Part shown: positions 3,172-44,957 of the stretch, piece after piece
Layout of the letters: every line of letters starts with the position of its first letter
Position numbering within the stretch: position 1 is the first letter of the stretch
Source: a virus
Lineage: Duplodnaviria; Caudoviricetes
Virus record (IMG/VR): IMGVR_UViG_3300044726_000110
Location: 1-52,308 of that record
DNA: 52,308 nt
Reading direction: 5' to 3' (one strand)
Translations under genes and position numbers: made by a program
The notes under the pieces: model-generated
Told to the model about the DNA's origin: nothing
Seen by the model: the letters and a program-made list of their open reading frames with translations, nothing else
Databases searched by the model: none

Positions 3172-3295
3172 CGGCCCCGTGCCGATTGCGATTGCGAGTG
3201 CTGCGGTTACAGCGCTGCGTGGTGGCGGTGAGATCTAGCAGTCTCACAGCCACCACGCAGCGGGCGATCTAGGTGATCGCCGCGCCGGGGTGTGG

Positions 3296-36451: not shown

Positions 36452-36691
36452 TTAACCCTTCATCTCTACGCGGCAGACTTCGCAGTGGCTGATGTGTTGG
36501 CCGGGGCCGTGGTCGCGGCTCAGCCAGTAGAGGCCAGACATGTTGTAGATCAGCTCGATGCCGAAGTGGATGCAGAGGAACCAGAAGATGTAGTAGGGCA
36601 TCCGGTCTTGGCGGTAGACGAGCGTGAAGGTGATGATGAGAGCGACGTTGAGGGTGAATCGTACGAGGTGCCACCATGCGCCCTTAGTCAT
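36452..36691 (-). CDS. two-TM membrane protein
   Basis: ATGA overlap; hydrophobic helices. Confidence 0.6.
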   Translation of the reverse strand: MTKGAWWHLVRFTLNVALIITFTLVYRQDRMPYYIFWFLCIHFGIELIYNMSGLYWLSRDHGPGQHISHCEVCRVEMKG

Positions 36692-37200
36692 CGCGGGGCC
36701 ACGGCGTACACGAACTTGGAGATGCTCCACGGGAAGTTCTTGAACCCATAGATCTCGTCCGTGGTGAATTCGGACTGGTAGTCGCCATCCAGGTAGTAGA
36801 TGTGTGCTATTCCAGCGCCGGCAAAGAGTTTGGTGCAATCACCGCAGGGGGCAGTGGTCACGTAGAGTACGCTGCCCAGCGTTGGGATGCCTAGCTTGGC
36901 ACACTGGATGATCACGTTGAGTTCGGCATGAATCGTGCGGCGGCAGTGGCCGTCCCGCATGAGGCATCCTGATTCGTCGCAGTGCAGGCCACCGGGGATG
37001 GATCCGTTGTAGCCGGTAGCGACCATGTGGCGACCCTGCACCAGCACGGCACCCACATGTCTACGTGGACAGGTCGCCCGCTTCGAGACTGCCTCCGCGA
37101 TCTCCATGAAGGTATCGTGGAAGGAAGGACGGGTAGAGAGGCGATGCTCCACATTCACATCCACGTATGGTGCAGCGTCGGTCATAGACTGGTCGGTCAT
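36688..37200 (-). CDS. dCMP deaminase (ComEB-like)
   Basis: RATC.RR.VGAVLV, TGYNG, HAE, PCxxC. Confidence 0.92.
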   Translation of the reverse strand: MTDQSMTDAAPYVDVNVEHRLSTRPSFHDTFMEIAEAVSKRATCPRRHVGAVLVQGRHMVATGYNGSIPGGLHCDESGCLMRDGHCRRTIHAELNVIIQCAKLGIPTLGSVLYVTTAPCGDCTKLFAGAGIAHIYYLDGDYQSEFTTDEIYGFKNFPWSISKFVYAVAPR

Positions 37201-37260
37201 GTGGTTTGACTCCTTGGTGTGATTGGTTGTCGAGGATCCGTTGTTGGCGACGATAGTCCG

Positions 37261-38082
37261 TCATGCGTGGAACTTCGCCTTCCACACGGGGGCGTCGAGG
37301 ACGTTGGTGGGTGCGCTGTACTCGAAGTCCGCGAACAGCATGGGGTAGCGGTCGAAGCAGATCCTTGCAATGCCGTCAGCCACGGCGCGCATTTCTTCCT
37401 CGGCGGCATCGTCGGTCCGCATCGAGATGACGTGACGCAGGGTACGGATGTTTGCCGACCACCCCATCTGCGTTGCCACGCCGTGTGGGAGCCATTTGCG
37501 TAGAGCGGATGTGTAGCGCTTCTTCTTATCGAAGTTCATCTCATCCAGGTGCAGGAGGCTGGTCATGTAGTTGACGTGCGACTGGATGAAGCCGTTGATC
37601 ATCGCAGACTCTTTGAGGAGTTCGGCGCGGACGGCTGGCGTGAGGTCGGTGTCGTTGAACGCCTCGGGATACACGAAGTCCCAATCGTCAAGGCGCACGT
37701 AGCGCATGCTCTCCTGCGAGATCGCCACGCCCACGCGGTGCCGCACCAGTTCGTGGGTCACGACACGGGAGCAGTTGCGGATCACGAAGTTGACTTGTGC
37801 GTGTTCGAGTACGGAGCCGTGGCCGGATTCGAGGATGTTCCACAGGTACTTGGCCTGATCGCTGCGTACGCGGGTGAGGTTCTCGTTGCGGCTCGTATCG
37901 AAGCTGGCGTAGCACAAGCGGCCCATGAACTCGATCAGGTCGTTGAGCGTGGGCGAGGGGAGGTTGTCCCAATGAATGACGGTCGGGGTGTCGTATCCCG
38001 ACTCACGGAGGTACATGCCGATGGCGTGCTTGTCGGGCATCGTTTCCCCGATGAGACGGACGGACGGCTGGACGTACTTCAC
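37261..38082 (-). CDS. thyX: flavin-dependent thymidylate synthase
   Basis: GH.SVLEH, SRVVTHELVRHR, SQESMRYV; GTGA coupling. Confidence 0.95.
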   Translation of the reverse strand: MKYVQPSVRLIGETMPDKHAIGMYLRESGYDTPTVIHWDNLPSPTLNDLIEFMGRLCYASFDTSRNENLTRVRSDQAKYLWNILESGHGSVLEHAQVNFVIRNCSRVVTHELVRHRVGVAISQESMRYVRLDDWDFVYPEAFNDTDLTPAVRAELLKESAMINGFIQSHVNYMTSLLHLDEMNFDKKKRYTSALRKWLPHGVATQMGWSANIRTLRHVISMRTDDAAEEEMRAVADGIARICFDRYPMLFADFEYSAPTNVLDAPVWKAKFHA

Positions 38083-38642
38083 TCGAATGTCTCCAGTGTG
38101 TCGATGATGTCGGCCACGTCCCAAAAGGCGTTCTCGTCCTTGACGTACTTGAAGTCGATATCGGCCTCGGCCAGGATCTCGTTCATGTTCTTGACGGCGG
38201 TGGGGGCGTTCGCATTGTAGCGGTTGCCGGGAAGCAGGAGCAGCACGTCACAGCCCTTATCCGCGAAGTGCTTGGCTTCTTCGAGGACGCCGCTAGAACG
38301 CGTCCAGCCGGGCATGCCGATGATCACGATCTGGTCCATTGCCCCGAAGATGGAGCGGTCCACCTTCATCCAGTATTCGCCGTCAGCGCGGTAGTTGGTG
38401 CGGTTCTCGGTAGTGAGGCCATCCTTGACCTGATCAATGAGGACGGACTCGTACCCGATGGGTGTGTAGAGGAAGTAGGGCAGTGCTACCTGCCACGCGC
38501 TGTACTGGAGGATGGCCGTTTCCTGTAGCACGGTGTCAGTGCGCCACTGGATGAGATCAGCGCGATCCCTGTCGGACCATTCCTCCCACAGTTCGGGGAC
38601 GCCCTTGGGGATCTGGTAGGGACTGGCGACATAGATGTTCAT
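38079..38642 (-). CDS. DUF1937 / nucleoside deoxyribosyltransferase-like protein
   Basis: IYVASPY...W...D...GWTRSSGVLEE. Confidence 0.8.
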   Translation of the reverse strand: MNIYVASPYQIPKGVPELWEEWSDRDRADLIQWRTDTVLQETAILQYSAWQVALPYFLYTPIGYESVLIDQVKDGLTTENRTNYRADGEYWMKVDRSIFGAMDQIVIIGMPGWTRSSGVLEEAKHFADKGCDVLLLLPGNRYNANAPTAVKNMNEILAEADIDFKYVKDENAFWDVADIIDTLETFE

Positions 38643-39031
38643 CGCGTCGCCTCGGTCGGACGCATGCCGGTGGGTTCGGGCGGCGTATGGGCGCTCTGCT
38701 TCATGATGGCGGCGTTGATCTGCTGGCCGCGCTCCTCGGTTACGCATGCCTCGATGAGAACAGCGTAGTTCACGAGGTCACCGATCTTCTCGTCCCACAC
38801 GGCTTGGCTGTGTGACTGCGGCTGTCGGACCATGTCCGCTACGCTGACGATGTGCTTTACCATCATGCCCCACGCGGCCTGTGCTGGCGACTCGCCTTTG
38901 AGGCCACCGGCGGCGTGGAAGTTGTGTAGGCGATCATCGCCGGGTGCGTACTCCTTCGCTTTGGAATCGAGCACCTTGCGGGTAAGCTCGATCCGGCGCT
39001 CTAGTACGTCGGTGAACTCGGAGGGGGTCAT
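38639..39031 (-). CDS. MazG-fold nucleotide-modification-associated (DUF1599-like) protein
   Basis: KAKEY...DRLHNF...KH...KIGDLVNYAVL. Confidence 0.7.
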   Translation of the reverse strand: MTPSEFTDVLERRIELTRKVLDSKAKEYAPGDDRLHNFHAAGGLKGESPAQAAWGMMVKHIVSVADMVRQPQSHSQAVWDEKIGDLVNYAVLIEACVTEERGQQINAAIMKQSAHTPPEPTGMRPTEATR

Positions 39032-40185
39032 GAATCGTCTCCATCTGGCGTTGGGAGCGCGAGGCTCGATACGTACACACGGGAGGAGGGTTCGCCCTCT
39101 TTGTAGGGAACCTCGAATCCGTGCTTGGCGGCTAGGGCAGACAGCGCGACCGTGTCGATCCCGCGCCTGCCCTTGACTGTGCCGTGCTTGACCTTGTAGC
39201 CCTCGGTGTAGAGTTGATAGCCACGGTCAACGGCTGACAGGATCTGGTCCCTGATCTCGCTTTTCTCCGCTCGGAGGGCGGATTCCCTCTCCGATATATC
39301 TCTGTATTGGGCCGCGAGATCGTCGAGGTGCCCTAACATTTTTGGGTTCGGCGGTGCCATCGTTGGGATGGCGTCGAGGTCGATAGTCTCGGACTCGGAC
39401 AGGCCAAGGAAGGCGGGACACTTGCCCTTGAACGGGCACCAGAAGCATTCCGCCTCGCGCCCATTAAAGCTCGGTTTCGGTATCCGACCCTCGTCCATCT
39501 CCTGGATCACTTCGATGTGTATACGGGCGTTGCTGCGCTCGAAGAATTCGTCATCCGGCTCGATGACACGGAAGCAGAAGTGGCTCGTCTCTTTGTTGTA
39601 GGCGCACACGAGTACCCACGACGGGCGGGCGATCCCCTTGGCGAGGACGGCGCGGAACTCGCCCGACTCCCACAGTTCATCCGACTTCACGTCCGAGAGT
39701 GTGTGGATGTACTCTTGTGTTTGGCCGTAATACTTGCGCATGAGGGTGTTCCTCATGTCGAAGCCGCGCTCTGCAAAGATCTTGTAGTTCGTGTTGTTGA
39801 GCGCCTTGGCTTCCAGCACCGCTGTCTCGCCACGGATTAATCGTTCGAGGGCTTCACCCGGTAGCCGCTCGAACAGCCAAGGGGTGATGTTGGCGAGGTC
39901 GCTGATCGCGACGATGGCTCCGTCAGGGTGGCCGGTGCGGTAGGGATCCTCGTGCGCTATCTCTAGCTGGGCGGATCCTGGCATCTCGGTGAAGTAGAGG
40001 TCGAGTCCTTGGTCGGCGCACATCTGCACGATCATGGGTTCCAGCGCCTTGCCGACACGGAACGCTACGTTGTTGTAGTCAGCCACCTTTTCGGTGCCTA
40101 TGAGTTCGTGGTAGATCTCGTGGGAGCACATGTCGCCCCACGACATGCGGACTGCGCCGGTGCCTTTGCGTGGTATAGGTGCCAT
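39028..40185 (-). CDS. Cas4-like PD-(D/E)XK exonuclease with Fe-S cluster
   Basis: N-terminal Cys, GHPDG, LEAK, QxxxY, CFWCPFKGKC. Confidence 0.8.
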   Translation of the reverse strand: MAPIPRKGTGAVRMSWGDMCSHEIYHELIGTEKVADYNNVAFRVGKALEPMIVQMCADQGLDLYFTEMPGSAQLEIAHEDPYRTGHPDGAIVAISDLANITPWLFERLPGEALERLIRGETAVLEAKALNNTNYKIFAERGFDMRNTLMRKYYGQTQEYIHTLSDVKSDELWESGEFRAVLAKGIARPSWVLVCAYNKETSHFCFRVIEPDDEFFERSNARIHIEVIQEMDEGRIPKPSFNGREAECFWCPFKGKCPAFLGLSESETIDLDAIPTMAPPNPKMLGHLDDLAAQYRDISERESALRAEKSEIRDQILSAVDRGYQLYTEGYKVKHGTVKGRRGIDTVALSALAAKHGFEVPYKEGEPSSRVYVSSLALPTPDGDDS

Positions 40186-40186
40186 G

Positions 40187-40462
40187 TTAGTCCACCACGT
40201 TCCCTTCACCGATGGTGCAGTCCGCGATGGAGACATCGAATGCGATCTTCATGTCGCGGACAAGCTGGTGAAAGCGGTTGACGAACCAGTCGGCGTGCGG
40301 TGATGGCGTATCAGCATTATCACCGAACTTGTCTTGGATGGCGCGGATCTTCTTGATGCGCTCGAAGTCGATCACTTTGCACGCGAGGCCAACCTCTGCG
40401 ACGGCGAGCATGTCGGCGGTGAAGCCAGCGGCGTCGGCGGTGCTTATAGGACGTGGTTGCAC
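40187..40462 (-). CDS. hypothetical protein
   Basis: AAGGAG RBS; own promoter. Confidence 0.7.
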   Translation of the reverse strand: MQPRPISTADAAGFTADMLAVAEVGLACKVIDFERIKKIRAIQDKFGDNADTPSPHADWFVNRFHQLVRDMKIAFDVSIADCTIGEGNVVD

Positions 40463-40480
40463 TGGTGTCTCCTTGTCATA

Positions 40481-40509
40481 AGTATACTATGCCGCGAGCG
40501 AGTTGTCAA
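40481..40509 (-). promoter_or_regulatory. sigma70 promoter
   Basis: TTGACA-17 nt-TATACT. Confidence 0.8.
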
Positions 40510-41278
40510 CAGGTCGCCACGTGCTGCGCGGATATGGGTGCTTGTCGGGATCGAATCCCTTGACCGTTCCCCACGATTGTCCGAACTCGAAATCCACGAA
40601 CACGGGAACCTTGAGGGTGACGGCGCTTGCCATGATAGCGGGGATGGTTTCCGCGAGCCACTGCACTTCGCCGTCCGGTGCCTCTATGACTATCTCGTCG
40701 TGGACAAGCGCTATGATTTTGCTAGCGCAGTTACTAGCCTTCATGAAGCGGTACACACGGAGGGCGGCAGTCTTGAAGTAGTCGGCAGCCGAACCCTGGA
40801 TCGGGTGGTTGATGGCACCGCGCTCAGCCTCGCCGCGCTTCTCGAAATCGCGGGACGTTATGTCGGGGAAGTAGCGCCGCCGCCCCATCATGGTTTCGGC
40901 GTACCCGTTGATCTTGCAGAACTTGATCGTGTCAAGCTGCCACTCGCGCCAGCCGGGGTAGGCATCGTAGACGCCCTTGATGAAGCTGTCGGCTTGCTCA
41001 ATGGTCAGGCCCAAGGTGGGTGTGCGCTTGAGGAGGCCGTGCCCTGCCATGCCGTAGGCTACCCCGAAGTTCACGGTCTTGGCGACGAGGCGCATATCCT
41101 TGCGGCGCTTCACGGTCGGCTCGCCACGGGCTAGTTCGGTGGCGAAGATCTGGCGGATGGTGTTCTCGTGAATGTCCCCGCCCGGTCCAAGTTCGCGGAT
41201 CATGGACTCGTCCCCGCTCAGGTGGGCCGCGATACGCATCTCTATTTGGGACAGGTCGATAGCGCATATCTTACTCAT
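40487..41278 (-). CDS. polA: family A DNA polymerase, C-terminal catalytic half (motifs A, B, C)
   Basis: DLSQIEMR, R..AKTVNFGVAYG, NHPIQGSAAD, VHDE; ATGA coupling and GAGG RBS. Confidence 0.95.
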   Translation of the reverse strand: MSKICAIDLSQIEMRIAAHLSGDESMIRELGPGGDIHENTIRQIFATELARGEPTVKRRKDMRLVAKTVNFGVAYGMAGHGLLKRTPTLGLTIEQADSFIKGVYDAYPGWREWQLDTIKFCKINGYAETMMGRRRYFPDITSRDFEKRGEAERGAINHPIQGSAADYFKTAALRVYRFMKASNCASKIIALVHDEIVIEAPDGEVQWLAETIPAIMASAVTLKVPVFVDFEFGQSWGTVKGFDPDKHPYPRSTWRPVDNSLAA

Positions 41279-41460
41279 GGTGCGTACGGCCCATGCATGT
41301 CCTCTTCGCGAGGCTTGAAATATCCGCAGTTGCAGCACACGACCCCGATGAGCGTCTCCCATAAGAAGAAGCCTTTTAACTTGCCGTGGAAGCAGTGGTA
41401 CGGCGAGTTAACGATGCCGCCGCAGTTGGTTACGCGACGATCAGGTTTGGGTATCGCCAT
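41275..41460 (-). CDS. Cys/His microprotein
   Basis: GAGG RBS; C...HCFH...CCNC. Confidence 0.6.
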   Translation of the reverse strand: MAIPKPDRRVTNCGGIVNSPYHCFHGKLKGFFLWETLIGVVCCNCGYFKPREEDMHGPYAP

Positions 41461-41461
41461 G

Positions 41462-41638
41462 TTAGTCCTCACGTTTCCAAGGCGTGACGCTCCAGCGCTC
41501 GCCTAGATACAACATGTACTCACGGGTAGCACCGCACCAGATGCATCCTTCGATGCCGGTAGTTGTGAAGATGCGGTGGTGTTCGTGGTACTGAGCAGGC
41601 CCGTGGATCCCGAGTTTGCAGAACAGGCGCTTAAACAT
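41462..41638 (-). CDS. DUF1660-like microprotein
   Basis: LFCKLGIH...CIWCG. Confidence 0.6.
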   Translation of the reverse strand: MFKRLFCKLGIHGPAQYHEHHRIFTTTGIEGCIWCGATREYMLYLGERWSVTPWKRED

Positions 41639-41834
41639 TCCAGCCATCCTCTTTGTTGAGTCGTGCAATGATCAGTTCGGCCTCGGCCGCGAGATCTCGT
41701 GGGGCCACCTTGTTGTCGCGGCCAGCGTAGGCGGCGCATTCGTGGTAGCCGTTGTCATCGGCCAGCCGCCACTTGCCGTCCTGCTTCTGCTTCCATGACA
41801 GATCAGTTGCCTTGCAGTGCTTGCAGTCAGGCAC
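41631..41834 (-). CDS. Zn-ribbon microprotein
   Basis: CKHC...W...GKW...HEC. Confidence 0.65.
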   Translation of the reverse strand: MPDCKHCKATDLSWKQKQDGKWRLADDNGYHECAAYAGRDNKVAPRDLAAEAELIIARLNKEDGWNV

Positions 41835-42114
41835 GATCTATCACCCACGGTATGTGTAGGTAGCGCGTGGTGTCATCACGTGGAGTCTGTACGTCTAGCG
41901 GAATCGTGACCCTGCTTCTGAGTATCAGTGCGCCCCATACGTGGATTTGTGCGACCATCACCTCATCCAGGTAGAGGCCGGGTGGTACCTCAAGCCTAAA
42001 GTTACCGGTAACTGTGCCTTGGTCGTTCCTGACGTTATGTACCTTCGGGTTCCACCAGCGATAGACTGGTCGCTCCCTCTTGCCACGGGCCAAGATAACT
42101 TGATGCTCATCCAT
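41827..42114 (-). CDS. hypothetical protein (95 aa)
   Basis: GGAG RBS; overlaps the stop of the polymerase N-half. Confidence 0.65.
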   Translation of the reverse strand: MDEHQVILARGKRERPVYRWWNPKVHNVRNDQGTVTGNFRLEVPPGLYLDEVMVAQIHVWGALILRSRVTIPLDVQTPRDDTTRYLHIPWVIDRA

Positions 42115-43924
42115 TGTCAGGCTCCATTGGTGCAATGAACGCGTTGCGGATGAGTGAGCCATCCACCTCGAAGCTGAGGTCGTCGCGCTTGCGGGCTGGT
42201 ATGTTGGTTTGGTTAGGGTTGGCTGAGGCGAACCGTCCGGTCGCCACCGATGCCTGCTTCACCTCGCTGTGTATGCGACCGGCGTTATCCATCCACTTCG
42301 GGAGTCCCTCGATGTAGGTACCGAACATTTTCTGGATCGCCTTGTAGGTGAGGATGTCACGGACGAGGGGGTTGGCGGAGTACGGTGCGAGGGATACCTT
42401 GTCAGTCGGCATCGCCTTCTGGTTCTTGGTTACGCGGAACGTGGGGATCTGGTGTTCGGTCGGCCACACGTAGAGCGCGTTCTGGACCTGCTGCCAGGAT
42501 CCGGGATTGAAGCGCACACCCTTGTTCTTCTTGTCGGCGGGTGGAGCAAACTCATCTACGACTTCCATGATGCGGGCGTACACTGCCTCTAGGCCGGTGC
42601 GGAGGTTCGCGGCGGCTTCGGTGAGTTCGTTGGGGTCGAACAGCATCCCGTTCCGCTCGACCTCGATGACTACGTCGTTAACGGGCACTTCGAGATCAGC
42701 GTACAAGTCCCACTGGTTACGTTCCTCAAGCAGATGCTTAAGGACGTAGTAGAGGCGCAGCGAAGCGTCGGCATCTTGGGCGGCGTAGGCCACGACTGAG
42801 GGGAAGTCGGCGTCTTGAGCGGCTCGCATATCGACAACGTAGTTACCACTTCGGGGATCCTTTCGCTTGAAGCCTCGATCATAGAAGGTCTTGATCTTCT
42901 GCATCTCGATGCCAGTGGCTAGGTGAAAGCCGTCTTTCAGGCCGAGTGGGTAGTCGCCCGCCACCCACGCCATGAGCATCGTGTCATCCCAATTCTGTAG
43001 GTCGATCCCGTACCCGTGGCAGATGTGTCGCTCGAACTTGGCGTTCGACACGATCTTGAGATGCTCGGTGGACTCTAGCTGTGGCTGGATCATGACCATG
43101 ACCGCTTCGGCTTCTGCGTCATCCTCGAAGGGGTAATACAGGCCGTCGCCGGGATCAGCACAGACACCCAAGCCGATGACCTTCGCGCCGCGCATGCCTT
43201 GGTCGTTGTCATAAATTTCATCACCGCTGTCGTCGGCACCGTTGCCGGTATCGGTTTCAAGGTCGAAGCCGAAGATGGGTGCTTCCACGGCGCGGCGGAT
43301 CTCATCCAGGGTTGCCACGGTGCGGCGGAACGGGAGCGCGTTCGTCTCGTACTTGCCAGTCCGCATAATGTCTACGGCTTTGTGAAGATCCTGCCGGAAC
43401 AGCGGCGTCCAATACTGCGGGTTCTGCTGCACGAATATGGGCTGCACGGTCGGTATGATGTATCGGTCCTTGCCCCATAGGTGGCGCTTGTAAACATTGC
43501 CCCGGATCTGGAGGAGGCCAGCTTCGTCGGGCAGCATCTGCTTGACGGCAGCAGCGCCAATCACGAGGATAACGATTGGATCAACTGTCTCGCCCTCCTC
43601 ATCCAAGTAGGGGCGGCAGATGCGGGCCTCGACGTTGAGGACTTCACGATCCTTGAGGGGGCGGCAGTGGACGATGTTCGTGCGGAAGCAGTCGCGGTCC
43701 ATGTCTACGTGCATCGTGGACAGGTGGTGGGCCAGGATCTGGCCTGTCTCCCCAGCGAGGGGCTTACCGATTTGGTCCTCTCGTACGGCGGGGGCCACGG
43801 AGACGATCATCATGCGGGCATCGTGGTTGCCGTACCCCGGCACCACACGGGTGCGATGCTCACTGAGGGGGCATTTTTTGCAGCCGAGTAGGCCGTCGAG
43901 GAACATCGGTAGTGGTTCACTCAT
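42107..43924 (-). CDS. polA: family A DNA polymerase N-half: family-4 UDG-like domain, 3'-5' exonuclease and thumb
   Basis: CKKC, TNIVHCRP; ExoI FDLET, ExoIII YAAQDA; ATGRFASANPNQTNIP...IRNAFIAP. Confidence 0.93.
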   Translation of the reverse strand: MSEPLPMFLDGLLGCKKCPLSEHRTRVVPGYGNHDARMMIVSVAPAVREDQIGKPLAGETGQILAHHLSTMHVDMDRDCFRTNIVHCRPLKDREVLNVEARICRPYLDEEGETVDPIVILVIGAAAVKQMLPDEAGLLQIRGNVYKRHLWGKDRYIIPTVQPIFVQQNPQYWTPLFRQDLHKAVDIMRTGKYETNALPFRRTVATLDEIRRAVEAPIFGFDLETDTGNGADDSGDEIYDNDQGMRGAKVIGLGVCADPGDGLYYPFEDDAEAEAVMVMIQPQLESTEHLKIVSNAKFERHICHGYGIDLQNWDDTMLMAWVAGDYPLGLKDGFHLATGIEMQKIKTFYDRGFKRKDPRSGNYVVDMRAAQDADFPSVVAYAAQDADASLRLYYVLKHLLEERNQWDLYADLEVPVNDVVIEVERNGMLFDPNELTEAAANLRTGLEAVYARIMEVVDEFAPPADKKNKGVRFNPGSWQQVQNALYVWPTEHQIPTFRVTKNQKAMPTDKVSLAPYSANPLVRDILTYKAIQKMFGTYIEGLPKWMDNAGRIHSEVKQASVATGRFASANPNQTNIPARKRDDLSFEVDGSLIRNAFIAPMEPDNG

Positions 43925-44126
43925 CGTCGTGGCCCCTGATTTTCTCAACTTCTGCAACGATGGCATCACCCGCCGCATTCTCCAGCAGCCACATGCAATC
44001 AATGCATAGATGGATATGACCGGGCTTAGAACCGCCCCAACGACGGCTAACCATTGCATCCACTTGGGCCGAAAGAGTTAGCGTAGCGCGCGGATCAGCG
44101 GGCTGACCACAAATACACTCAGCCAA
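43917..44126 (-). CDS. small Zn-binding protein
   Basis: CICG...HLCIDC. Confidence 0.65.
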   Translation of the reverse strand: MAECICGQPADPRATLTLSAQVDAMVSRRWGGSKPGHIHLCIDCMWLLENAAGDAIVAEVEKIRGHDDE

Positions 44127-44316
44127 TTAGGATCTCCAGCTTCTCGCCGCAGAACGGGCAGTAGGTGACCGGAATCCGTACGATGTCCATACCACCTGGA
44201 TCGGTGGCTACCAGTCGCCAGCTTGTCCATGTTGAATCAAAGGTCAGCCGCAGCGGTTCGTAGATGCCGTCACATATGTGACTGGTCGAGTAGTTGAGTT
44301 CTATTAGGACGCTCAT
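44119..44316 (-). CDS. small Zn-binding protein
   Basis: YCPFCGEKL; ATGA overlap. Confidence 0.65.
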   Translation of the reverse strand: MSVLIELNYSTSHICDGIYEPLRLTFDSTWTSWRLVATDPGGMDIVRIPVTYCPFCGEKLEILIG

Positions 44317-44957
44317 CGCCGGTTCCCCATGATGGTGAGGTACTCGTGGATCATTGGGATCTCTAGTCCGACGTGGCCGTTCGACATTGTCTTGTGTTGA
44401 ATCTTGATAATGCGCAACTGCTTTTCGAGTTTGCAGCGCACCATTCGGTGCTCAGCGGTGAGATCGTCGGTGAGGAAGTAAGTCCTTGTGCTGCGTTTAA
44501 GGCGTAGGTCAGCAAGCAGGAGGGCGATCCGTCCATCAGTGCTGAGCAGAGTTGCCAGCCACTTGAGGATATCTTCGCTGCGGGCGAGGAAGCTGTCGTA
44601 TGTTGGGGCTTGAGAGAGGTCATTCTCATCATGTGTGTACCCGATCATGTTCCAGTAGGGAGGGTGCCAGAAGATGAGGTCCACGCCCGCATCCGGTAGC
44701 TCGTGTTGGACGCCCTGACGCACGACCTTCTTCATCACGTCGCCGCCCTTGCGGATGTCGGTGGCGTACCACGGGACTTTGAGATGCTCGCACACCTCGC
44801 CCGTGGTTCCGCCGCCGTGCATCGGATCGTATACGAAGCCGGGTTGGTAGGTTTCGATGAGGTCTTTGATCAGGTAGCCCGACACGTTGCCACGAAAGAG
44901 TGAGTCACCGTACGGGCCACGGTTGGGGTAAGAGGCTACGGAGTCTGCAAATGCCAT
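44313..44957 (-). CDS. amino-DNA methyltransferase (N4-C/N6-A)
   Basis: SAM-binding YDPMHGGGTT; catalytic HPPY. Confidence 0.85.
   Translation of the reverse strand: MAFADSVASYPNRGPYGDSLFRGNVSGYLIKDLIETYQPGFVYDPMHGGGTTGEVCEHLKVPWYATDIRKGGDVMKKVVRQGVQHELPDAGVDLIFWHPPYWNMIGYTHDENDLSQAPTYDSFLARSEDILKWLATLLSTDGRIALLLADLRLKRSTRTYFLTDDLTAEHRMVRCKLEKQLRIIKIQHKTMSNGHVGLEIPMIHEYLTIMGNRR

Follow-up and report, generated by a model that had tools for sequence, protein, structure and literature searches.

The window analysed here is the whole of the IMG/VR virus record IMGVR_UViG_3300044726_000110, a linear sequence of 52,308 bases from an uncultured phage (Caudoviricetes) in a soil metagenome assembly, which CheckV rates as about 49% complete. 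On the minus strand of the window, the gene for a family A DNA polymerase (polA) is present as two separate open reading frames (ORFs), an N-half and a C-half, and the interval of about 830 bp between them is filled by four further ORFs on the same strand, o1 to o4 (Table 1). The end of the N-half and the beginning of the C-half are as given in a preliminary description made from the DNA letters alone. That description also reported four coupled ORFs in the interval, three of them rich in Cys and His; this was confirmed for o2, o3, and o4, and the wording is amended in that o1 is without Cys.

Table 1. Genes of the divided polA locus, listed from the N-half to the C-half, with positions in the window.
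Feature	Position	Strand	Length	Junction with the gene above	Characteristics
PolA N-half	42107-43924	minus	605 aa + stop		UDG-like domain (family 4), 3'-5' exonuclease, thumb, and first palm strand; ends with IRNAFIAPMEPDNG and the stop codon
o1	41827-42114	minus	95 aa	8-nt overlap; ATG overlaps the N-half stop (ATGGATGA)	alternative starts TTG 42093 and ATG 42162
o2	41631-41834	minus	67 aa	8-nt overlap (GTGCCTGA)	GTG start; CxxC...HxC pattern
o3	41462-41638	minus	58 aa	8-nt overlap; ATG overlaps the o2 stop (ATGTTTAA)	small Cys/His protein
o4	41275-41460	minus	61 aa	1-nt spacer	small Cys/His protein
PolA C-half	40487-41278	minus	263 aa + stop	o4 stop overlaps the C-half start (ATGA)	ATG at 41278; begins with MSKICAIDLSQIEMR

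The two halves match consecutive parts of the Pfam polymerase profile DNA_pol_A (PF00476), the N-half over profile positions 26-149 (E 4.2e-21) and the C-half over positions 151-380 (E 1e-66), and both matches exceed the cut-off of 34.3 bits. Since the matches abut at 149/151, no part of the polymerase domain is missing. The N-half frame is open over 42107-44059 (650 aa), with the likeliest start at 43924 (MSEPLPMF), in agreement with the relatives P0122 and P0123; in the 650-aa ORF the UDG profile PF03167 matches residues 74-216 (E 3.5e-17) and is followed by the exonuclease profile PF01612 (E 5.8e-08). The C-half comprises the strand of motif A (IDLSQIEMR), the fingers, which include motif B (KTVNFGVAYG), and motif C (VHDE).

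The catalytic residues are conserved on both sides of the break. D8, R63, K67, Y75, H193, D194, and E195 of the C-half do not vary, either among 4 close sequences or in a wider alignment of 34; in terms of Pol I, these are the residues of motifs A (Asp), B (R..K...FG..YG), and C (HDE). The exonuclease motifs of the N-half are kept. The ratio of nonsynonymous to synonymous substitution rates (dN/dS), roughly estimated by the Nei-Gojobori method against L016, a relative with the same cut, is 0.22 for the N-half and 0.19 for the C-half; the values for all pairs lie between 0.09 and 0.39, and the one pair of intact genes tested (L018-L035) gave 0.29. By these comparisons both halves are under purifying selection, and the decay of one half with dN/dS near 1, which the preliminary description had held open as an objection, is not borne out. 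Because both halves are conserved, with their catalytic motifs, a natural PolA of two chains, as first proposed, appears to be the best reading of the locus.

The split itself is real DNA and not an assembly error, because its junctions reappear in contigs of a second run and of a separate study. Run X1, which is possibly the source of the record, gave a contig of 48,893 bases across 40400-44100 with 0 differences. In run X2, from the same sample as X1, identical contigs over 40751-41449, 41505-41875, and 41865-42229 bridge the junctions o4/C-half, o3/o2, o2/o1, and o1/N-half. In run X3, from a different study and from groundwater, identical contigs over 41168-41318, 41412-41562, and 41708-41892 bridge o4/C-half, o4/o3, and o2/o1, so that the N-half/o1 junction is bridged only in X1 and X2. 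A misassembly across 41.2-42.2 kb, which had been named as a possible refutation, is therefore contradicted by identical contigs in all three runs. Parts of the region 40546-41892 are thus identical between a groundwater metagenome and a stretch that comes as a whole from a soil sample of another study; therefore, the same or a nearly identical phage occurs in both.

Overall, the six cistrons from the N-half to the C-half look like one operon, since their stop and start codons overlap, no terminator-like site was found in 40300-44400, and promoter-like sites in the same region are at chance level (2 against 1.7 expected). Read from the sequence, no Shine-Dalgarno-like run lies close to the ATG of the C-half. 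Directly upstream of the N-half, at 43917-44316 on the minus strand, there are two further small Cys-rich ORFs (69 and 65 aa), the second of which matches phrog_4030 (E 1.5e-05). Therefore, zinc-ribbon-like genes are common in this module and are not peculiar to the gap in polA.

The position of the break was defined from intact relatives, which read ...AF(V/T)AP-PGHQ/PGWS/EGCT-IC(G)IDLSQ... with a linker of 4-5 residues. At the break in the window, 6 extra residues follow FIAP and 3 precede ICAIDLSQ. The intact relative P0124 (856 aa) was modelled with AlphaFold from a 20-row alignment; the model has a predicted local distance difference test (pLDDT) value of 89.0 and a predicted template modelling (pTM) score of 0.87, and its best PDB match is the Klenow fragment 1kfs_A (E 9.8e-39, TM-score 0.83 on the target). 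In the model, a short strand (593-594) is joined by a turn (595-598) to the strand that bears the motif A Asp (599-606), and the residue block 591-600 has a pLDDT of 95. As modelled, the cut falls in a tight 4-residue beta-turn that joins neighbouring strands, and not in a floppy inter-domain linker. Since the N-side strand and the motif A strand are adjacent via this turn, the N-half would retain a piece of the palm sheet. The preliminary description had placed the break in the short loop directly before motif A, with which the linker alignment and the model agree. It had also seen the thumb as separated there from the catalytic palm and fingers; the position before motif A stands, and the separation is not a clean one, as the N-half keeps the first palm strand in the model.

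To place the split among related genes, 130 loci containing the start of the C-part were fetched, many of which are one contig from two collections, and 84 of these also contain the end of the N-part. In 80 of the 84 the two parts of these distant relatives are contiguous in one frame, and in the other four (L016, L017, L019, and L020) they are not. Walking upstream from motif A in all 130 loci singled out the same four as broken; 121 loci are open for at least 150 codons and 5 meet the end of the contig. In-frame stops in nine distant loci were rejected as breaks, being the terminal stops of the genes themselves. In L016/L017 the N-half ends with ...APLED and is followed by a homologue of o2, then by a 97-aa ORF, and then by the C-half. 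In L019/L020 the N-half ends with ...FIAP and its TGA overlaps the ATG of the C-half, so that no ORF lies between the halves; their C-half has an N-terminal extension of 45 aa. Each of the two pairs was found in two assemblies. In addition, the C-halves P0002-P0004 (250-252 aa) are 66-68% identical to that of the window and begin with MAKIC[AG]IDLSQ. The breakpoint first seen in one phage is thus found in related ones, all of these being cut in the same linker.

Close relatives of the N-half show both states of the gene. Among its ten closest clusters in 5.8 billion proteins, five are split (the window's own, P0122, P0123, P0125, and P0128) and five are intact (P0124, P0126, P0127, P0129, and P0130). 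The split P0123, which ends with ...FVAP, is sister to the intact P0124, with 85.4% identity over 596 aa in a gapless alignment. In the tree of the N-part (13 rows) the split rows fall into three separate groups, which takes a minimum of three state changes, and the approximately unbiased (AU) test rejects a single split clade (p 5.8e-42). Judged from the trees, there is good support for at least two state changes, and a third is likely. Because the P-x-G-x-x linker of the whole family is preserved in the intact members, these look ancestral and not re-fused.

As to the four small genes, the GC content at third codon positions is 0.72 in o2, 0.71 in o3, and 0.72 in o4, compared with 0.73-0.83 in the real genes of the phage, so that o2-o4 have the third-position GC excess of the phage's genes, and o1 (0.61) has it less so. 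No match to any of the four was found by tblastn in 50,697 phage records at E<=0.01. Against 1.84 billion representatives, o1 returned itself and two marginal matches (E 2.8e-04 and 9.6e-04) and is, as far as its sequence tells, an orphan. A single-sequence model of o1 (pLDDT 73) is all-beta with seven strands, and the fold searches with it remained within noise (best Foldseek E 0.21, best VIA Z 4.6). A relation of o1 to the 97-aa ORF of L017 is not supported (E 0.38). The only microgene with a homologue is o2, whose counterpart in L016/L017 (L017:2682-2918) is 35% identical (BLASTP E 4e-09); C4, C7, H31, and C33 are invariant. A profile search of 5.8 billion proteins with o2 returned only the window and L016/L017 forms, and the best ESM Atlas score of o2 (0.83) is under the useful range. 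For o3, language-model features in the ESM Atlas gave scores of 0.93 to small hypothetical proteins of Pseudomonadota and of 0.90 to a viral cluster in which 19% of the members have DUF1660, both of which are to be taken as leads only. A match of o4 to PB2 cap-binding (13.6 bits, E 0.071) is under the cut-off and was taken as chance. Because the same cut carries zero, two, or four ORFs and only o2 is shared, o1-o4 are best read as lineage-specific variable cargo and would not be parts of the polymerase.

Divided phage polymerases of this kind are already known. The OM43 phages MEP401 and MEP402 (Zobellviridae) are described as having a split DNA polymerase, ORF13-ORF14-ORF15, and for MEP401 infection and growth are documented; in the same account no homology was found for the inserted ORF and an intron is left open (PMC10580990). 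In the MEP401 sequence, gp13 ends with ...IKTLFLSRYGE and gp15 begins with MILNADAKALEW, with Pfam matches over profile positions 48-132 and 154-380. The cut thus lies at profile position about 132-145/154 with matching flanking strands, compared with 149/151 in the window. In both phages PolA is divided at the turn that precedes the motif A strand; the first gene encodes its N-terminal part together with the exonuclease, and the second gene encodes its C-terminal part. The halves are separated in both by one or more small co-oriented ORFs without assigned function. Unlike the window, MEP401 has one inserted ORF (77 aa) instead of four, lacks the UDG domain, and belongs to a very distant PolA lineage (window C-half best 41%, all below 60% identity in the phage collection). 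None of o1-o4 is homologous to its ORF14 in the tblastn search above, which included MEP401, and while an intron was left open there, no intron family of Rfam is matched in 40000-44500 of the window. Similarly, Microcystis phage Ma-LMM01 has PolA in two genes that divide the polymerase domain and flank a 51-aa ORF (gp180/gp179/gp178). Its cut is about 20 residues further upstream, gp178 starting before the ...RFALQAPPGY... strand (MTKIKMNSRFALQAPPGYAWVSVDFSSQELR), and its UDG is a separate gene (gp173) and not fused. YuA-like phages may likewise have a DNA polymerase annotated as part I and part II.

Other splits and fusions are related to the present one in part. Czernecki et al. (2023, PMC10201439) describe an exo/pol split in the PolA of S-SBP1-like, T7-like cyanophages, called there the first PolA split, which arose by a 1-nt deletion and a new start codon and whose new termini are predicted to be solvent-exposed. 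Both cases are fissions of a phage PolA into two chains, which interact in the S-SBP1-like enzyme and would do so here; the S-SBP1-like cut separates the exonuclease domain from the polymerase domain and has no intervening gene, whereas the window is cut inside the polymerase domain. Fusions of UDG with PolA are described in N4-like cluster 17 and SPO1-like phages (PMC10201439). The N-half of the window resembles these in having PF03167 followed by PF01612, and differs in that those fusions are one-chain enzymes and that its UDG motifs are altered. A split DNA polymerase is also described for a marine cyanophage lineage (10.1101/325100). Finally, fractured genes such as Aeh1 nrdA-mobE, the split gp43 of T4-like Aeromonas phages, and split-intein loci (cited in PMC2677866) likewise consist of an essential replication gene in two co-oriented parts with foreign ORFs in between and a protein presumed to reassemble, but no homing endonuclease or split-intein part was detected at this locus. 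The novelty implied by the preliminary description is therefore lessened, as the cultured MEP401 has the same cut with one small ORF of no known function. The arrangement opens no new category, since a split phage PolA with small ORFs is in print for MEP401/MEP402 and annotated in GenBank for Ma-LMM01. To these cases the clade adds a divided polymerase of the UDG-PolA type, intact and split relatives that are up to 85% identical, and a series of inserts with zero, two, and four ORFs.

Taken together, these results are best explained, with a probability that we put at about 0.8, by a replicative UDG-exonuclease-PolA made as two polypeptides that are not rejoined, the product of a gene fission at a beta-turn which has been cut recurrently and whose junction has taken up microgenes as cargo. 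A possible course of events is as follows. The polA gene would have been broken in the 4-residue beta-turn between the ...AF(I/V)AP strand and the strand of the motif A aspartate. In its minimal form, by comparison with an intact relative, the cut may have been a small frame-shifting indel, after which the N-half ended at a TGA and the overlapping ATG was used as a start; the 1-nt deletion with a new start codon described for the S-SBP1-like split (PMC10201439) parallels such a step. The o4-stop/C-half-start in the window (GCACCATGAGTAAG) and the N-half/C-half junction of L019 (GCTCCATGACAA) have the same AP-stop/ATG overlap. Four lineage-specific microgenes may then have settled in the new intergenic junction. 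The C-half would probably be translated by coupling through the microgenes, because there is no nearby ribosome-binding site, stop and start codons overlap, and no terminator is present. The halves of 605 and 263 aa would be expected to reassemble non-covalently, with the adjacent palm strands pairing as they do in the one-chain enzyme. The turn itself may be a recurrent fission point, being cut or intact among close relatives and cut also in the very distant, cultured MEP401.

Several points weigh against this explanation. The binding of the N-half to the C-half is inferred, and a further polymerase elsewhere in the genome is conceivable, the record being about 49% complete. The dN/dS values are rough because dS is saturated (at least 1.05). 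The recurrence leans on P0123, which is known from a single contig of 2,132 bases and for which no relative was found among viral contigs; without P0123 a single split clade passes the AU test (p 0.069), with two changes. The tree of the C-part, in which P0123 has no partner, is poorly resolved, and one split clade is not rejected there either (p 0.086). In addition, recombination between phages that spread the cut allele could mimic repeated fission.

An alternative with a small though appreciable chance is that a mobile element, either a free-standing endonuclease gene or an intein that fractured later, homed to the conserved site before motif A and left the break as its footprint, the ORFs being its decayed remains or replacements. 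This would account for a split state that is scattered among close relatives at one exact site, and the gene of L019/L020 also has an intein-like insertion of 329 aa in motif B. Phage genes fractured by free-standing endonucleases are on record, among them nrdA in Aeh1 and gp43 in Aeromonas phage 25 (cited in PMC2677866). However, Pfam, PHROGs, and NCBIfam gave no match to a nuclease or to Hint for any of the three inserts. Nor did they give any other family for o1-o4 or for the inserted ORFs of L017, so that the earlier statement of no homing endonuclease holds as far as recognisable ones are concerned; a novel nuclease type may escape such profiles. The model of o1 is a plain beta sandwich without a fold match, the intact relatives keep the P-x-G-x-x linker without a remnant, and the junctions are of three differing types, in which the N-half ends with AP, APLED, or APMEPDNG before its stop.

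It is improbable, in our estimate, that the microproteins, or at least the zinc-ribbon-like o2, are accessory subunits that aid assembly or function of a multi-part polymerase, as the preliminary description had suggested in speaking of interleaved subunits. The overlaps indicate that the six cistrons are tightly coupled in translation, the C-half appears dependent on coupling through o4, and o2 is kept in two lineages with invariant Cys/His ligands. On the other hand, L019/L020 have the same cut with no ORF between the halves, and the two ORFs of L016/L017 include o2 alone of the four, placed directly after the N-half and not second. The orphan o1, the failure of o1-o4 to match any of the 50,697 phage records, the inserted ORF of MEP401 among them, and the resemblance of o3 to widespread small prophage proteins (a lead only) also speak for cargo. 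Co-folding of o2 with both halves, with o2 as the scored partner, gave a score of 0.00 (mark 0.32), which is evidence for neither side.

About as doubtful is a variant in which the turn before motif A is a specific landing site where small gene cassettes are gained and lost by a recombination that duplicates the stop/start and involves no recognisable nuclease, with one or more of the zinc-ribbon microproteins tuning the assembly or stoichiometry of the chains. The hints for it are the scattered split state among close relatives and direct repeats at the borders of the inserts. GCCTGAC occurs on both sides of o1 (41826-41837 and 42116-42127), and in L017 the sequence AAGATCTGC(T/G)CCAT occurs at the start of the o2-like gene (2694-2707) and at the start of the C-half (3213-3226). 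A repeat scan of the same stretches found 15 and 11 repeat families of similar size, and the border repeats are no longer than many chance repeats. Therefore, they are only a hint of genes slotted into an existing junction.

There is very little to suggest that the halves are rejoined into one chain by RNA or protein processing, by frameshifting, or by bypass. In L019, the ATGA overlap after CCCCA would permit a fusing -1 slip, a speculation from the sequence only. In the window, a fusion would need to pass about 830 nt of dense coding sequence and four stop codons that lie in different frames. A search of both strands of 40000-44500, and of L016, L017, and L019, gave no Rfam match at E<=1, and the interval between the halves is fully coding; the earlier statement that an intron finds no room is thus supported. 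No intein blocks or intein-sized extensions were found at the broken ends, which have only the 6 and 3 extra residues noted above, in line with the absence of intein termini stated before. Least likely of all is a broken, decaying gene or an assembly or sequencing artefact, for which one could cite the incompleteness of a metagenome assembly, since identical contigs come from a second run and another study, the same cut is present in at least five N-half clusters and in two contig pairs each found in two assemblies, the catalytic motifs are invariant with low dN/dS in both halves, and the cultured MEP401 replicates with the same cut.

The preferred reading, a two-chain enzyme that arose by fission, would make this a natural case of a family A polymerase that is cut within the palm, one turn before the catalytic aspartate, and is yet retained by selection. 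The clade may serve as a comparative set for the origin of a gene fission, for the filling of a new junction by orphan genes, and for the choice of PolA split sites in protein engineering.

The UDG-like domain of the window (43430-43810 on the minus strand, about residues 40-165 of the N-half) departs from its relatives in three motifs. It has SVAPA where 11/11 relatives shown have [GA]QSPG, and VQPIFVQQN where all 11 have HP[AS][AFY][VA]xRN, which replaces His by Q and Arg by Q. Further, V replaces N of RTNVN, and the four Cys are retained. These alterations are confined to the window phage among the relatives shown. As the motifs concerned are presumably catalytic, the domain is probably inactive as a glycosylase in this phage.

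Three observations concern individual relatives. In L019 (2728-3714; the same in L020), a 329-aa in-frame insertion lies in motif B of the C-half, between G and S (KTIGFG/C...ITGN/SLYG). It resembles an intein that contains a homing endonuclease domain, and it is termed intein-like because of its first-position Cys, its ...GN/S end, and two stretches that by eye are LAGLIDADG-like. Neither Pfam nor NCBIfam gave a match for it, and its only PDB match is weak, a 40-residue stretch to the DnaB intein entry 6bs8 (E 0.55). In L017 (608-2680), the N-half ORF is fused upstream to a sequence like the RNA polymerase alpha subunit (P0128: PF01000, PF03118, and PF01193), which is most likely a chimeric assembly, because the sister contig L016 has normal polA sequence there. 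An intact relative of 885 aa (N-part 39% and C-part 49% identical), whose linker ahead of motif A is longer, is encoded at L133:3849-6503, on a 7.5-kb contig binned in a metagenome-assembled genome of Porticoccaceae, which gives a weak hint of a gammaproteobacterial host range for the wider family.

In the window as a whole, the plus strand carries the structural module, with terminase, portal, and tape measure genes, and the minus strand carries the replication module, with genes for a helicase, an ERCC4-like nuclease, a DNA methyltransferase, polA, a Cas4/RecE-like exonuclease, a thymidylate synthase-like protein, and a dCMP deaminase. Near the replication genes, at 36688-38747 on the minus strand, the dCMP deaminase (E 7.5e-43) and the thymidylate synthase-like protein (E 3.4e-33) lie together with a DUF1937 protein, a set that may be relevant to the modification of nucleotides or DNA in this UDG-PolA phage.

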